From: an uncultured Muribaculaceae bacterium | Lineage (GTDB): Bacteria > Bacteroidota > Bacteroidia > Bacteroidales > Muribaculaceae | Direction: 5' to 3' | NCBI GenBank assembly: GCA_945931475.1 | Contig: CAMEPD010000004.1 | Coordinates: 1-55,572, forward strand | Length of the DNA: 55,572 nucleotides | Shown here: positions 40,744 through 48,208 of the stretch, one piece after another | Numbering within the stretch: the first letter of the stretch is position 1 | How the letters are laid out: each line of letters starts with the position of its first letter | Program-made: the position numbers and the translations under genes | Notes under the pieces: model-generated | What the model saw: only the letters and a program-made list of their open reading frames with translations | The model's database searches: none | What the model was told of the DNA's origin: nothing

Positions 40744-41718
40744 TTAGCGGGCCATGTCGGCCAGGGTGAAGGTGGCGTCCATGGTGCGCGGTTCCTTGCG
40801 GCCGTTCATCAGGTCGAAGAAGAAGTTCGAGATGGTCTTGCCGTCGAGAACCACGGGGTTACCCTTGGCGTCGTTACCGAGTTCGTAGGTTTTGAGCAGC
40901 TGCGGACCGAGGGCGGCGGCTGTCAGCAGGAAATGGTTCTGGAAACGGTCGGTGTCGAGCATATCGGCGGCGAGCACTTTGCCCACTACGGTGAACGAGC
41001 GGAGCGGTTTCTGGATTTCGCCCTCCACGAGGTTTGATTTCACTTCGTCGGTTTCGAGGTTCATGGGGATTCGGCCCGACATGGGGTCCTCGGCGACACC
41101 GCGGAAGAGTGCGCCCAGGTCGGCGAGCGAGAGGTTGAACAGGCGTGTCGATGCCGTGGTCTCGGGCGCTTCGATGGTGAAGGCGCTGGGGAGGAGCAGC
41201 TGCACGGTGCCGTCGAGTTTGACGCGCGGGGTGTTGAAGGTGCCGACAATCGAGTTGGAGATTACGGCCTCCTGGGTGGCGAACACGCCGCCGATGACTA
41301 CGCAGTTCTCGAGGGTCACCTCGTCGGCGTAGATTGAGCCTGCCACGAAAGCATTGCGCAGGGCCACGCTCTTGGCGTTGATGTCAGCACCGAAGAAGGG
41401 TTTGGCTTCGGGAGCGCGCGATACAATCGAACCGGCCGAGCCGACAGTCTTCTTGAAGGTGATGTCGCCCTTGGTCGAGGTGTTGATGTACAGCTCTTTC
41501 TGGGCGAAGGCTGCTCCGTTGATTTCAACGTCGCCGCCGCGGAATTCGATGCGTGTGCCGAAGATGGCGCCCTCCACTACGACATTACCGTCGAAGATGA
41601 GGTTGCGGGTGATCTCGGCTATTTTCTGCGGGAGGATTGAGCCGCGCACCAGGTTATCCTTAAGGATTTGGTCGGTGGCGTCGAAACGTACCTCCTTGAG
41701 TTCTTTTCTGTTGTTCAT
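40744..41718 (-). CDS. beta-helical repeat protein (bactofilin-like or Toastrack/DUF4097-like), last gene of the operon
   Basis: ~17-18-residue periodic pattern of alternating hydrophobic/Gly residues across residues ~40-170 (GNVVVEGAIFGTRIEFRGGDVEINGAAFAQ...CVVIGGVFATQEAVISNSIVG); no TM segment. Confidence 0.55.
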   Translation of the reverse strand: MNNRKELKEVRFDATDQILKDNLVRGSILPQKIAEITRNLIFDGNVVVEGAIFGTRIEFRGGDVEINGAAFAQKELYINTSTKGDITFKKTVGSAGSIVSRAPEAKPFFGADINAKSVALRNAFVAGSIYADEVTLENCVVIGGVFATQEAVISNSIVGTFNTPRVKLDGTVQLLLPSAFTIEAPETTASTRLFNLSLADLGALFRGVAEDPMSGRIPMNLETDEVKSNLVEGEIQKPLRSFTVVGKVLAADMLDTDRFQNHFLLTAAALGPQLLKTYELGNDAKGNPVVLDGKTISNFFFDLMNGRKEPRTMDATFTLADMAR

Positions 41719-41740
41719 TTTTTTTGGAAAATTGTGAAGG

Positions 41741-42775
41741 TTATTTGCCTGGTGCGGCGGTGTTTGATAGGTTGAAAAGGCGTCCGGTAAGCTCGGCTAC
41801 GCGGCGGTCGTGGTCGGTCTGGGCGGCAGAGCTGAGGCCGGCCACTTCGCTTTTGTAGTACTCGGATATGCGCTCCTGCGAGTCGTCAGCGACGGGAGTG
41901 TCCCACTTGCGGCTCTCCATGCGGTTGCAGAGCTCCTGCTGGTTGTAGTGCTGGAGCATGGGCGAGGAGTAAATCTGAGTGTTGCGCACGCCGCCGGTGT
42001 CGGTGGTTTCCATCACCATGAAAGGTGTGGCGAAGCGTGTTGATTCGCCGCCGTCGCGCAGACAGGCGTCGAGCAGGACGTCGGTGCGGTACTGTTCGGC
42101 CAGGAAACGCTCCGACGAGCGCAGGGCGTTTGCGGCGTCTTTCTTGGCGAGCGAAGCCGAAATCATGGAACGCACGCGGGCGTTTTCGCCGGCTGTGACA
42201 GAGGCTGTGGCCACCATGGAGTCGCCGGTCTGGCGGTCGGCCAGTTCGGAGGTCTTTCGCTGGAACTTGAATATGGGTTCGTCGATGGCGTGGATTCGGT
42301 TTTCGAGTTCCCGGTTGAGGTCATTGAACAGTTTGCCGTATCGCGAACAGATGCGCTGGTAGTCGTTTCCCATCTGGCGGCGCTTGTCGTTGCAGCGCTT
42401 GGCCAGTTCGTGGAGCTGCACAAGCAGGGCGTCGGTCTTGGTCTTCAGCTCGGTAATCTGCTGTGAGATGTCTGACTTGACGGTCTTGAAGAATCCGGCG
42501 ATGATGGTGTCGCCGACCTGCTTGCTGGTGTCGTAAATCGACTTGACGTGAGCGGCTTTGGTAGCTACCACCGAGCCGGTGACAAGGTCTACCGATTCCT
42601 TCATGTCCTTGATACTCTCCTCGAAGGGGTCGGTATCGACTTCGACGATGAACTCAACGTCCTCGTAAACGTGGCCACTGTAACTCTTGAAGCCTCCGGT
42701 TTCAGAGGCCGGATATGACACCGAGCCCGAATACTCCACGCAAATGGTTCTTGTAAACTTACGTTTGTAACTCAT
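41741..42775 (-). CDS. hypothetical coiled-coil protein, paralog A
   Basis: Collinear similarity to the next gene (DYQRICSRYGKLFNDLNRELENRIHAIDEPIFKF vs DYHMISARYGKIFGSLNRALRQRVTELDRPILDF; shared C-terminal GxxQTQI(F/Y)). Long helical heptad-like central region. Confidence 0.6.
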   Translation of the reverse strand: MSYKRKFTRTICVEYSGSVSYPASETGGFKSYSGHVYEDVEFIVEVDTDPFEESIKDMKESVDLVTGSVVATKAAHVKSIYDTSKQVGDTIIAGFFKTVKSDISQQITELKTKTDALLVQLHELAKRCNDKRRQMGNDYQRICSRYGKLFNDLNRELENRIHAIDEPIFKFQRKTSELADRQTGDSMVATASVTAGENARVRSMISASLAKKDAANALRSSERFLAEQYRTDVLLDACLRDGGESTRFATPFMVMETTDTGGVRNTQIYSSPMLQHYNQQELCNRMESRKWDTPVADDSQERISEYYKSEVAGLSSAAQTDHDRRVAELTGRLFNLSNTAAPGK

Positions 42776-42787
42776 AAGTGTGAAGTA

Positions 42788-46154: not shown

Positions 46155-46859
46155 TTATGACATGGATTCGCGACGGCGTCGCATGGTCTGTTCGACGCGG
46201 CTCAGAAGCTGTGTGGCCTGCTGCCCGTAGCTCTGCCACTGCGGGAGCATCTCGCGCAGACGCGAAGCGTCATCGATGATGTACTGCTCGTAGTTGATGG
46301 CTTCGGGGGATGTGGAGGGGGTGAGGTAGCGGCAGCCGTCGGCCAGGGCGCGCAGCCGTCGCTTGATGTCGTCGGGCACGCCGGGGGTGAGGTCGGCGTT
46401 GTCGACTAAGTCGTTGAGCGCGAAGCGCACATCCTTCTTGCCGGCCATGGCGAACTGCTCGCGACGGTATACGTTGCCGGCGGTGCGCGTGGCGGCCGAC
46501 GAGGCGAACAGCGCTATTGCGAAGCCGAACAGCAGCACAAGCTGCGCCATCAGCTGCCATACGAACGGCAGGAAGAACATAGCCACCATTACTATTATGG
46601 CCAGGATGCTGTACCATGTGGTGGAGGTCCAGCGGATGCCCAGGCCGGCGGCCTGCTTGCCCGAGGGGTCGTCGAGACGGATGGGCGCCATGCCTAAGTT
46701 CCAGGCAAACAGCCAGTAGATTAACGACGCTACCACTATGTCGAGTATCATTACTTCGGTCGACTTTACATGGAACATCGGCAGCAGAAGCACGAATGCG
46801 AGGATTATCAGCGCCTGCCCGAAGATGGCTATGGCAAGAGCTACGGGACGTATTCTCAT
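46155..46859 (-). CDS. 4-TM membrane protein with cytoplasmic C-terminal helical domain
   Basis: Four hydrophobic helices in the first ~130 aa, then a charged helical tail; 234 aa. Confidence 0.6.
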   Translation of the reverse strand: MRIRPVALAIAIFGQALIILAFVLLLPMFHVKSTEVMILDIVVASLIYWLFAWNLGMAPIRLDDPSGKQAAGLGIRWTSTTWYSILAIIVMVAMFFLPFVWQLMAQLVLLFGFAIALFASSAATRTAGNVYRREQFAMAGKKDVRFALNDLVDNADLTPGVPDDIKRRLRALADGCRYLTPSTSPEAINYEQYIIDDASRLREMLPQWQSYGQQATQLLSRVEQTMRRRRESMS

Positions 46860-46894
46860 AATATAGTCAGGTTAGTTGGTTGCTGAACAGTGGG

Positions 46895-48208
46895 TTAACG
46901 TTTGTTGCCGCAACGGGGGCAGAACTTGGAGCCGGGAGGGATGGTGGCGCCGCAGCGCGAGCAGGTGTTGCTCTCGGCGATTACAGGCTGTCCGCACGAG
47001 GGGCAGAAGGTGCTTCCGGCGGGGATGGGTGTGTGGCAGTGTGCGCAGGTGCGTCCGGGGCCGGCGAGCTGTGTGCCGCAGCTTACACAACGGCGTGCCT
47101 CGGCCGGGTTGTCGGCGCCGCAGTTGGGGCACGGGTTGTATTTGTTGCCGCAGTTGGGGCAGAATTCCATGTTCGAGGGGAACTTGCGCGAGCATTTCGA
47201 GCAGTAGACCATGTGGACTGCCTGCTGCTGGCCCTGCTGACCGCCGAAACCGCCCTGCTGACCGCCGAAACCGCCCTGCTGACCTCCCTGGCCCGGGCCG
47301 AAGGTGGGCTGGTTGTACTGCGGATTCATGGCAGCTCCGCCGCCCATGCCGCCGCTCATGTTGTTCATCATGTTGATGGCCATGAGGCCGCCGAGAAGGC
47401 CGCCGCCGTTGCTGCCGCCGCCGAAGCCGCCGCCCATCTGGCCGATGGCGTTGTTGGCTGTGCCGAACATCTGCTCCTGTTGCCAAGTGTGGCCTGTAAT
47501 CGACATTGAGGCCTGCTGGGCTATTGATTCCTTGATGCGCCGGCCCTCGGGTGTCGAGGTGTCGATGTCGATGGTCGAAACGTAGAATTTCGGTAGCTGA
47601 AGGCCCATCTCCTCCCAGAACTGGTTCAGCTGGTCGCGCAGCTGTGTCGACAGCGGGTCGAGGAAGGCCGAAATCTGCTTGTAGCCTACGTGATTCTGAA
47701 TCATGAACTGCAGGATCATCGACTTCACCTTGGTGGTGAATTCTCCGGTGAATTGTGCTGTTAAGTCGCGCTGTGTAAAGACATTGCGTGTGCCCACCAT
47801 GCGGATGAGGAACTTCTCGGGCTCTACAACTTTAAGGCCGTACTGACCGTCGACGGCCAGCGGAAGCTGGGTCTGATAGTCGGGGTCGTGCATCGGCAGC
47901 TGACCTACGTGGTAGGGGATATTGAAGGTCTCAACGAGGTTGACGAACCATACCTGGGCGGTAAACGGGTTTTTGCCTCCGAAGGGGAAACCGTACAGGC
48001 TGCGCAGTATGGGGAGGTTCTCGGTGCTGAGGGTGTGCTTGCCGGGGCCGAATTTGCCCATGAGCTGTCCCTTAGAGAAAAGGAGGGCCACCTGCGATTC
48101 GTTGACTACAAGCTGTGTATAGGTCGACAGATTGTCGTTGGGGAATTTGTAAGCGTATGTGATTTCGGAACCCTGCGGATTCCACATCACGCAATCTATG
48201 ATAGCCAT
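46895..48208 (-). CDS. SPFH/Band_7_1 (YdjI-like flotillin-related) domain protein fused to Gly/Gln-rich linker and four C-terminal zinc-ribbon modules
   Basis: N-terminal MAIIDCVMWN...ALLFSKGQLMGKFGPGKHTL...VWFVNLVETF...KFLIRMVGT matches the Band_7_1 pattern. The C-terminus has four CxxC-(9-15)-CxxCG zinc ribbons (CSKCS..CPNCG; CPNCG..CVSCG; CAHCH..CPSCG; CSRCG..CPRCG). Confidence 0.8.
   Translation of the reverse strand: MAIIDCVMWNPQGSEITYAYKFPNDNLSTYTQLVVNESQVALLFSKGQLMGKFGPGKHTLSTENLPILRSLYGFPFGGKNPFTAQVWFVNLVETFNIPYHVGQLPMHDPDYQTQLPLAVDGQYGLKVVEPEKFLIRMVGTRNVFTQRDLTAQFTGEFTTKVKSMILQFMIQNHVGYKQISAFLDPLSTQLRDQLNQFWEEMGLQLPKFYVSTIDIDTSTPEGRRIKESIAQQASMSITGHTWQQEQMFGTANNAIGQMGGGFGGGSNGGGLLGGLMAINMMNNMSGGMGGGAAMNPQYNQPTFGPGQGGQQGGFGGQQGGFGGQQGQQQAVHMVYCSKCSRKFPSNMEFCPNCGNKYNPCPNCGADNPAEARRCVSCGTQLAGPGRTCAHCHTPIPAGSTFCPSCGQPVIAESNTCSRCGATIPPGSKFCPRCGNKR

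Follow-up and report, generated by a model that had tools for sequence, protein, structure and literature searches.

On the minus strand of the 55,572-nucleotide stretch of DNA analysed here (contig CAMEPD010000004.1 of assembly GCA_945931475.1, from an uncultured Muribaculaceae bacterium; hereafter the window), six genes between positions 40744 and 48208 make up a single operon, and the cassette that they form corresponds to no described system. One of its products belongs to a known family, the SPFH proteins of the YdjI type, one is remotely bactofilin-like, and four belong to no described family, so that the cassette is new as a system and its function is reached by inference. A first-pass annotation, read from the letters and open reading frames of the window, had picked out this operon and could name no system to match it. 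That view has held. The products of genes two to six (G2 to G6, numbered in the direction of transcription) fall into no Pfam, NCBIfam (June 2026), PADLOC or PHROG family and have no solved structure, the PHROG matches of the six proteins as a set are confined to zinc ribbons and coiled coil, the source records call the homologs "hypothetical protein" bar a few automatic JGI labels, and a full-text literature search found no description of the cluster. The cassette is nevertheless a considerably stronger finding than sequence reading alone could show, in that its six-gene order is rigid across several phyla.

The distribution of the cassette was charted from two directions. When 185,579 species, each represented by one genome, were searched with a profile of G5, 126 relatives came back, and the 80 best loci were mapped with the six window proteins. 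By record title these loci come from Bacteroidales and other Bacteroidia, bar a few odd labels on metagenome-assembled genomes (MAGs), and wherever the contig is long enough the order is G1-G2-G3-G4-G5-G6. A phmmer search of 1.84 billion representative proteins with the core of G3 gave 305 relatives at E<=1e-3; of eight distant relatives examined, at 22-50% identity, seven had the six-gene layout (L082-L089, all except L081), with near-equal protein sizes and frequent overlaps of stop and start codons. Altogether 89 loci were collected, of which 70 are informative, and 66 of these keep the six genes in order, 58 by tblastn and a further eight with an open reading frame (ORF) of three to four transmembrane (TM) segments in the G2 slot. 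The four exceptions are L057 and L067, which lack G1 and G2, L075, which lacks G1, and L081, a reduced distant variant. Because the order is fixed in these 66 loci while the flanks are unrelated, the genes do not occur independently of one another, and the earlier suggestion that they might travel as a unit is borne out.

Carriers include Bacteroidales and Marinilabiliales, together with MAGs labelled Melioribacteraceae, Fibromonadales, Spirochaetaceae/Termitinemataceae and Oscillospiraceae; the names attached to relatives of the distant G3 proteins also include Paludibacteraceae and Bacteroidales. The operon is common in gut and rumen Bacteroidales, for example in Muribaculaceae and Alistipes-labelled MAGs, and is present in spirochaete MAGs from termites and the rumen. 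Among the carriers that can be cultivated are Muribaculaceae Isolate-013, Dysgonomonas termitidis CCUG 66188 and Bacteroidales bacterium CF. Locus L082 is flanked by genes for FliW, CsrA and MotAB, and L084 adjoins a gene with a TP_0021_N domain, as fits a spirochaete. A complete six-gene operon (L086, ERZ28654221 scaffold_334, and P0461) is found on contigs that carry the NCBI label Oscillospiraceae (Bacillota), with an MCP chemoreceptor gene, FtsX/ABC genes and OmpR-type two-component genes as neighbours; it may reflect genuine transfer to Bacillota or else mis-binning of the MAG. In the flanks of the 80 loci there is no conserved seventh gene and no mobile-element marker, the commonest neighbouring family occurring at six of the 80, and among 124 immediate neighbours, which are mostly metabolic or housekeeping genes, no Pfam family appears more than four times. 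Three close MAGs labelled Muribaculaceae/Sangeribacter have large proteins encoded after the operon (L013:12198-13958, L014:5076-7865 and L015:9632-12934), which read by sequence as a vWA-like protein, a protein with a tubulin/FtsZ-like N-terminus (GGTGVK motif) and a protein of about 1100 amino acids (aa); these may be a separate uncharacterised module.

In the window itself, all six genes lie on the minus strand: G1 at 46895-48208 (437 aa), G2 at 46155-46859 (234 aa), G3 at 43743-46109 (788 aa), G4 at 42788-43708 (306 aa), G5 at 41741-42775 (344 aa) and G6 at 40744-41718 (324 aa). From G1 to G6 the intergenic gaps measure 35, 45, 34, 12 and 22 bp; the first-pass annotation had placed the six frames correctly and had overstated the spacing by one base (13-46 bp rather than 12-45 bp). 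The hairpin terminators that it had proposed on either side are real in the sense that both fold far more stably than shuffled sequence. At the 5′ boundary, a consensus terminator scan lists a hairpin at 48386-48408(-) with a 9-bp stem, 6 GC pairs and a T6/U6 tail, and the fold of 48375-48415(-) reaches -17.8 kcal/mol (z -5.9) with U6 behind it; this is the intrinsic terminator of the upstream alpha-amylase-like gene (ORF 48440-50725). The 3′ boundary is a terminator hairpin behind G6 at 40695-40726(-), in which 13 pairs are followed by UUUAUUUUU; it comes from folding (window 40685-40735(-), -19.1 kcal/mol, z -4.7, 0/200 shuffles as stable), the consensus scan having listed the upstream hairpin only. 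The base composition of the operon is that of the surrounding chromosome, and in the window it lies between infB and the CBM26/alpha-amylase gene. By eye, TAACTTTG at 48370-48377(-) is a candidate Bacteroidetes -7 box, for which the consensus is TAnnTTTG.

The component that anchors any interpretation is G1, a soluble SPFH protein of the YdjI/SamI type (Band_7_1, COG4260). Its residues 23-235 (47504-48142, minus strand) match Pfam Band_7_1 with E 1.6e-30 and 106.8 bits, above the cutoff of 24, a Gly/Gln-rich low-complexity linker follows, and residues 330-437 (46898-47221, minus strand) hold four CxxC...CxxC units, evident in the translation and matched in Pfam by Zn_Ribbon_1 in four stretches (E 1.3e-22) and by DZR (E 6.8e-21). 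Hydropathy gives no hydrophobic window in G1 and hence no TM segment, and its identity to the copies in orthologous loci is 49-74%. The Pfam matches agree with the order of domains given in the first-pass annotation, which had gone on to explain it as a fusion of YdjI with YdjG. That explanation falls, because YdjI as described already consists of a Band_7_1 SPFH domain, a low-complexity linker and a C-terminal zinc ribbon (PMC8581546; PMC11237479), so that the architecture of G1 is canonical YdjI. No YdjG-like protein was found, although no search was aimed at the NTF2-like/YpeB-related domain of YdjG.

The product of the next gene, G2, is probably the membrane receptor for G1. Its hydrophobic spans at residues 1-36, 33-56 and 78-125 amount by hydropathy to about four TM segments, in agreement with the earlier description of a 4-TM membrane protein, and a C-terminal region of about 110 aa is predicted to be helical and cytoplasmic. 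Conservation is weakest in G2 (20-43% identity), and where tblastn fails to find it, an ORF with three to four TM segments fills its slot.

G3 is the largest of the six proteins. It runs from an N-terminal helix through a short hydrophobic anchor and a conserved core that ends at about residue 607 to a disordered tail rich in Pro, Glu and Ala, which closes with an L7/L12-CTD-like domain (CTD, C-terminal domain). Residues 1-607 are 54-78% identical within Bacteroidales, with many invariant residues; profile searches find no relative of G3 in the Protein Data Bank (PDB), and its AlphaFold2 model, with a predicted local distance difference test score (pLDDT) of 53, is too poor for a fold search. 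Across G3, G4, G5 and G6, profiles run on the whole PDB either drew a blank or matched nothing beyond the low-complexity tail. The anchor was recognised by hydropathy at residues 56-72 (VWVWLFCFIIPYFI; 45894-45944, minus strand), and its position is constant, between the N-terminal helix and an IFRDYKV..LGVAYVPVA motif. Its length is not. In the window and in several close relatives it spans 17-23 residues, and the window copy reaches a Kyte-Doolittle (KD) mean of 1.82 over 17 aa and fails KD 1.6 over 19 aa, whereas in many distant orthologs it extends to 40-45 residues or to two TM segments. The hydrophobic stretch of the first-pass annotation is therefore genuine, and its reading as a single-pass TM helix is rejected: too short in the window and doubled in distant orthologs, the anchor is more likely, judging from these sequences, a hairpin or monotopic insertion that leaves both ends of G3 in the cytoplasm. 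The placement of the two ends follows from the expectation that orthologs share one topology and from the acidic tails and cytoplasmic-type domains of the C-terminal part.

Beyond about residue 607 conservation gives way, and the 70 orthologs compared diverge in both length and sequence, with disordered tails that are mostly strongly acidic. In the window protein the linker covers residues 608-713 (43971-44288, minus strand; pLDDT about 30), and residues 714-782 (43764-43970, minus strand) form the L7/L12-CTD-like end. The similarity noted in the first-pass annotation is upheld by phmmer, which aligns residues 5-68 of a 79-aa query with residues 54-117 of Escherichia coli bL12 from the PDB, without gaps over 64 residues and across the whole CTD (E 9e-5); the Pfam Ribosomal_L12 match (E 0.035) is under the cutoff. 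The weight that the annotation had placed on this module survives in part. The module is real and turns up again in no fewer than two distant lineages of G3, for the E. coli bL12 CTD matches the C-termini of the distant orthologs P0257/P0397/P0398 (E 3e-12, with Pfam Ribosomal_L12 on record) and P0245, and the record for the G3 of locus L089 carries a Pfam Ribosomal_L12 match. It is no defining component of the cassette, however, being missing from 70/70 locus orthologs and from 119/120 close G3 homologs, and it is best described as a lineage-specific or variable module that recurs. The bL12 CTD binds translational GTPases through a basic surface made up in E. coli of K65, K70, R73, K81 and K84; at these columns the window G3 has P, Q, M, A and Q, so the basic surface is not kept, whereas in P0257 the columns of K65, K70, R73 and K84 hold K, R, R and K.

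In many other orthologs a small helical motif closes the G3 tail; its likeness to Rho_N and LEM (HeH) is weak, with E 3e-4, 2e-3 and 0.04, none of which reaches the cutoff. This motif of about 45 aa, L..eeL..msDeeL..Il..Lgieyd...fdReeaI..Il, can be seen in L029, L043, L062, L069 and L076, among others, and the proteins that carry it often terminate in ...DNE or ...NN. Since disordered, variable tails thus carry differing ends, the G3 tail looks from its sequence like a flexible tether with exchangeable end adaptors. A further occurrence of the L12-like module is found in a Rikenellaceae MAG (L040, 12399-15496), where four genes stand 3′ of the operon and encode a second Band_7_1 SPFH protein with a SHOCT end, a zinc-ribbon protein with multiple TM segments, a multi-zinc-ribbon protein, and a small protein that joins a zinc ribbon, a Ribosomal_L12 CTD and a TM segment. 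The last of these is above the Pfam cutoff for Ribosomal_L12 (27.4 bits), which ties the L12-CTD-like module to SPFH and zinc-ribbon genes in another lineage, unfused to G3.

G4 and G5 are true paralogs, as the first-pass annotation had supposed, with 32% identity by BLASTP (E 4e-33) and an hhalign probability of 100% (E 2.6e-45), and their sequences make them a helical pair of a new family; in six of eight distant loci the stop codon of G4 overlaps the start codon of G5. G5 differs from its paralog in having an extra N-terminal amphipathic beta-hairpin, rich in Ser, Thr, Gly and Tyr, which is predicted at residues 3-46 (42638-42769, minus strand) and is absent from G4; in the alignment of G5 orthologs (A1), M1, S2, Y3, Y15 and S16 are invariant. 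Besides this long hairpin, the G5 model (pLDDT 72, predicted TM-score 0.26) contains two helices, of 112 and 49 residues, and a small alpha/beta end.

Conservation in G6 is among the highest in the cassette (54-75% identity; mean column identity of 72% in alignment A3). When 32 orthologs are taken together, 26 match Pfam Bactofilin (PF04519) at E<1, the best at 8.2e-6, which points to a remote bactofilin-like beta-helix in the N-terminal half of G6; a profile search of the PDB gives BacA at E 0.3. The predicted beta-helical region extends over about residues 38-180 (41179-41607, minus strand), its extent being taken from the repeat pattern in the translation, with the best Pfam stretch at residues 62-154, and the C-terminal half is a conserved, uncharacterised domain of 145 aa. 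The first-pass description of a beta-helical repeat protein is thus supported indirectly, through the Bactofilin matches of the orthologs. Its pointer to Toastrack partners leads nowhere: at E<=1, Pfam gives no Toastrack-type family for G6 or for any of the 31 orthologs, and the candidate is rejected in favour of the bactofilin-like assignment.

The exceptional loci help to separate what is constant in the cassette from what is added to it. Since L057, L067 and L081 keep only G3, the G4/G5 component and G6, these constitute the core, and G1 with G2 is a near-constant add-on. The reduced, very distant variant L081 (9198-15904) lacks an SPFH gene; Fib_succ_major proteins abound in its genome. 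Its G3-like protein has two unambiguous TM helices and a CxxC...CxxC insert; its single G4/5-like protein is linked to the pair by hhalign (90.6%, E 1.3e-6) with the motifs GDxIxxGF and DYxxIxxRYxKIxxxLN aligned; its G6-like beta-helix protein carries an acidic tail of its own and a C-terminal zinc ribbon; and a gene for a protein with a zinc ribbon, a TM segment and a Fib_succ_major part stands behind the G6-like gene.

Zinc ribbons recur in the genes around the operon. In L042 (8115-8570), L049 (4735-5100), L056 (12246-12806) and L067 (12019-13137), an optional seventh gene lies 18-27 bp 3′ of G6 on the same strand and encodes an N-terminal zinc ribbon, a disordered linker and a TM segment; the L056 protein matches Pfam DUF805, and a DUF805-like motif was read by eye in that of L067. 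The ribbon of these proteins, MExKKCPxCGKxxLxxAKxCKHC, resembles those of G1 (E 3e-4). In L088, a DUF805 protein gene on the strand of G6 (12965-13783) overlaps the G6 stop codon; other ribbon types stand 3′ of G6 in L081, L083, L085 and L087, the last of which has a zinc-ribbon-SLT_2 lytic transglycosylase gene (11174-12556, same strand as G6) directly behind it. The L043 operon, from a Draconibacterium MAG, is interrupted after G2 and before G3 by two genes (4076-5632), one for a protein with a zinc ribbon, a TM segment and SH3_3 and the other for a TM protein with a YkuD L,D-transpeptidase domain, and in L067 a YkuD-like gene (its motif read by eye) lies divergently upstream of G3. The window has no seventh zinc-ribbon gene. 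From these arrangements we infer that the ribbons dock membrane partners onto the core, a proposal that L067, with its zinc-ribbon-DUF805-like gene and neither G1 nor G2, fits.

Among described systems the closest is pspA-ydjGHI (samGHI) of Bacillus subtilis. There, the soluble YdjI needs the membrane proteins YdjG and YdjH and recruits the oligomeric helical protein PspA (PMC8581546; PMC11237479; bioRxiv 10.64898/2026.02.06.704340), YdjG being made up of a double zinc ribbon, an NTF2-like/YpeB-related domain and a TM segment, and YdjH of a TPM domain (PMC11237479). The cassette likewise has an SPFH gene of YdjI architecture, with four ribbons to the one of YdjI, followed by a membrane-protein gene; it encodes helical proteins that would be prone to oligomerise; and zinc ribbons recur in its partner proteins as they do in YdjG. 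In contrast, G3 to G6 have no counterpart in pspA-ydjGHI, and some loci carry the G3-G6 core but no SPFH gene. Scanning the six proteins with Pfam brought up no TPM family, and no YdjG-like NTF2/YpeB domain was identified, no specific search for that domain having been made. The cassette is not a member of the pspA-ydjGHI system and is analogous only.

Other membrane-organising systems share single features with the cassette. Flotillin/stomatin-NfeD operons (FloT-YuaF, YqiK-YqiJ, HflK/C) also pair an SPFH protein with a small polytopic partner, and the expected role is likewise that of an oligomeric organiser of a membrane patch, but G1 has no N-terminal TM segment or hairpin, G2 has no NfeD assignment (no Pfam family), and the cassette has no protease link and four extra conserved genes. 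The bactofilins (BacA/BacB, CcmA, BacNOP-PadC, Hyphomonas BacA-LmdC), whose beta-helix the N-terminal half of G6 remotely matches, are membrane-associated polymers that recruit envelope enzymes, and cell-wall enzymes adjoin a few orthologous operons; unlike them, G6 is about three times the minimal size, falls below the cutoff in the window, always occurs with G3-G5 and has its conserved 145-aa C-terminal domain. As for bL12, its whole CTD is matched gaplessly by the last 65 or so residues of G3, which sit behind a long flexible hinge as in the ribosomal stalk, yet G3 is not ribosomal, and most orthologs lack the domain, many having an HeH/Rho_N-like mini-domain or nothing in that place.

The reading that we favour, with a probability of about 0.42, is that the six proteins assemble into a scaffold that lines the inner membrane on its cytoplasmic side and serves membrane or envelope organisation or maintenance. 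G3 would insert through its hairpin or monotopic anchor, with the N-terminal helix and the large core both in the cytoplasm; G4 and G5, whose genes are usually translationally coupled, would form a hetero-oligomeric helical assembly; and G6 would polymerise in the manner of bactofilins, such that G3, G4/G5 and G6 jointly make a conserved core lattice beneath the membrane. G2 would hold G1 at the membrane, as YdjG and YdjH hold YdjI in B. subtilis, and the G1 SPFH oligomer would organise a membrane patch, the G3-G6 lattice standing where PspA stands in PspA-YdjGHI. The zinc ribbons would act as a docking module that is always present on G1 and in some lineages on extra genes (DUF805, SH3_3, SLT_2), and the G3 tail would provide a flexible tether whose lineage-specific end, L12-CTD-like here and HeH/Rho_N-like in many others, recruits clients. 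A bolder version, which we hold to be on the doubtful side, describes a previously unrecognised sub-membrane machine built from three new families (the hairpin-anchored G3 scaffold, the G4/G5 pair and the bactofilin-like G6), with a zinc-ribbon docking code for SPFH and envelope proteins and a stalk-like tail whose L12-CTD/HeH ends couple the lattice to clients, possibly translation GTPases or nucleic acids.

Several observations weigh against a membrane scaffold. The whole mechanism is drawn from architecture and analogy. The window copy of G6 scores 12.2 bits against Pfam Bactofilin, where the cutoff is 27.9 (E 0.22), and none of the six proteins has a PspA_IM30 or Snf7 match in Pfam at E<=1. 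The many invariant polar residues of the G3 core could mean that it is an enzyme and not a scaffold. Zinc-ribbon genes are not significantly enriched near the operon (6/225 near against 4/442 far, Fisher p 0.095), and cell-wall enzymes adjoin it in 3/89 loci only, namely L043 and L067 (YkuD) and L087 (SLT_2). Finally, Rfam gave nothing relevant for the operon or its leader, with no stress-responsive element found, and the flanks of the 80 loci hold no conserved regulator. The first-pass annotation had spoken of membrane stress and scaffolding together; by analogy, this idea is retained as the best reading.

Much of the same evidence could be read otherwise. A lattice of G6 and G3-G5 might position peptidoglycan-remodelling enzymes in cell-wall growth and shape, in the way of BacA-PbpC, bactofilin-LmdC and CcmA-Csd, and the bactofilin similarity of G6, the YkuD genes that L043 and L067 carry within the operon or beside it, the ZnR-TM-SH3_3 protein (ZnR, zinc ribbon) encoded in L043 and the ZnR-SLT_2 gene directly downstream in L087 all lend themselves to such a morphogenetic scaffold, bactofilins being known to cooperate with cell-wall enzymes (PMC10945521). 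With such enzymes so rarely nearby and none in the window, with a distribution in Bacteroidales whose patchiness argues against a core morphogenesis function (126 relatives in the genomes of 185,579 species), and with carriers as different in cell shape as Bacteroidales, Spirochaetaceae and Fibromonadales generally are, we regard this role as unlikely. The YdjI architecture of G1 invites another comparison, since YdjI recruits PspA (PMC8581546) and the links between SPFH proteins and ESCRT-III are ancient (PMC10936438): G4 and G5, long-helix proteins of roughly PspA size, would then be extremely diverged PspA/Vipp1/ESCRT-III homologs that G1 recruits for membrane repair. This is improbable given the lack of PspA_IM30 and Snf7 matches, and profiles of G4 and G5 searched against all PDB sequences retrieve no PspA, Vipp1 or ESCRT-III chain. 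Moreover, their motifs GFF..v.S.ISQQI and DY..I..RY.K.F..LN are unlike those known for ESCRT-III, the N-terminus of G5 is a beta-hairpin rather than an amphipathic helix, and the core persists without G1 in L057, L067 and L081.

The first-pass annotation had also entertained a defence-type module, for which one can picture a scaffold that senses phage infection and G5 hairpins that oligomerise into a killing membrane pore. A patchy distribution, a rigid gene order in variable contexts and a cross-phylum spread suggestive of horizontal transfer are what such abortive infection would lead one to expect, and occasional neighbours (an RM-like methylase, restriction-modification, in L075; PemK in L081) point the same way. 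The Ser/Thr/Gly/Tyr-rich G5 hairpin has alternating hydrophobic residues, and the sole Foldseek matches of the G5 model are the TM stems of beta-pore-forming toxins; these matches are non-significant (E >= 0.49, TM-score 0.11), however, and the single G4/5-like protein of L081 starts without a hairpin-like pattern. None of the six proteins has a defence match in PADLOC-DB 2.0, the best being at chance level (E >= 0.004), and none contains a nuclease, protease, NADase or NTPase domain. PADLOC run on the 124 largely housekeeping neighbours gives a few single helicase-type matches and no recurrent defence family, IMG/VR viral contigs hold no relative of G5, 72,556 plasmids and 50,697 phage records hold no relative of the G3 core, and identity roughly follows taxonomy within Bacteroidia. 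We therefore set the defence proposal aside as quite improbable. Chance adjacency of six unrelated co-oriented genes, for which only the absence of functional annotation could be cited, is refuted by the order, sizes and tight spacing kept in 66 of 70 informative loci in several phyla with unrelated flanks.

If the cassette does form a scaffold of the kind favoured here, it would join a short list, given that few membrane-organising systems are known in bacteria (flotillins, PspA/ESCRT-III, bactofilins, dynamins) and that each of them opened a field. The sub-membrane machine of the bolder version, if true, would be common to Bacteroidota and to MAGs labelled Ignavibacteriota, Fibrobacterota and Spirochaetota, and would amount to an independent invention comparable to PspA/ESCRT-III or to flotillin platforms. 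The YdjI-type SPFH proteins gain a second partner set that is independent of PspA, so that what soluble SPFH proteins scaffold becomes directly testable, and the recurrent L12-CTD-like or HeH-like ends on a long tether are an unusual feature that can likewise be tested. Because the operon is common in gut Bacteroidales, what it does matters for understanding the cells of dominant gut anaerobes that have been little studied.

Some minor observations concern the neighbouring infB gene, which encodes initiation factor 2 (IF-2) at 37559-40486 and converges on the operon. As the flanks of the cassette are not conserved, it is probably a coincidence that IF-2 is encoded beside a gene whose product has an L12-CTD-like domain. 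The N-terminal region of this infB product (about residues 90-330) is very long, rich in Ala, Pro, Lys and Glu and of low complexity, and it gives rise to spurious long ORFs on both strands. Between the two convergent units, at 40481-40570, Rfam reports a weak match to the suhB/mmgR small RNA (E 0.17; 23.8 bits, where the gathering score is 41), which is most likely just the overlapping infB terminator hairpin (40534-40556).

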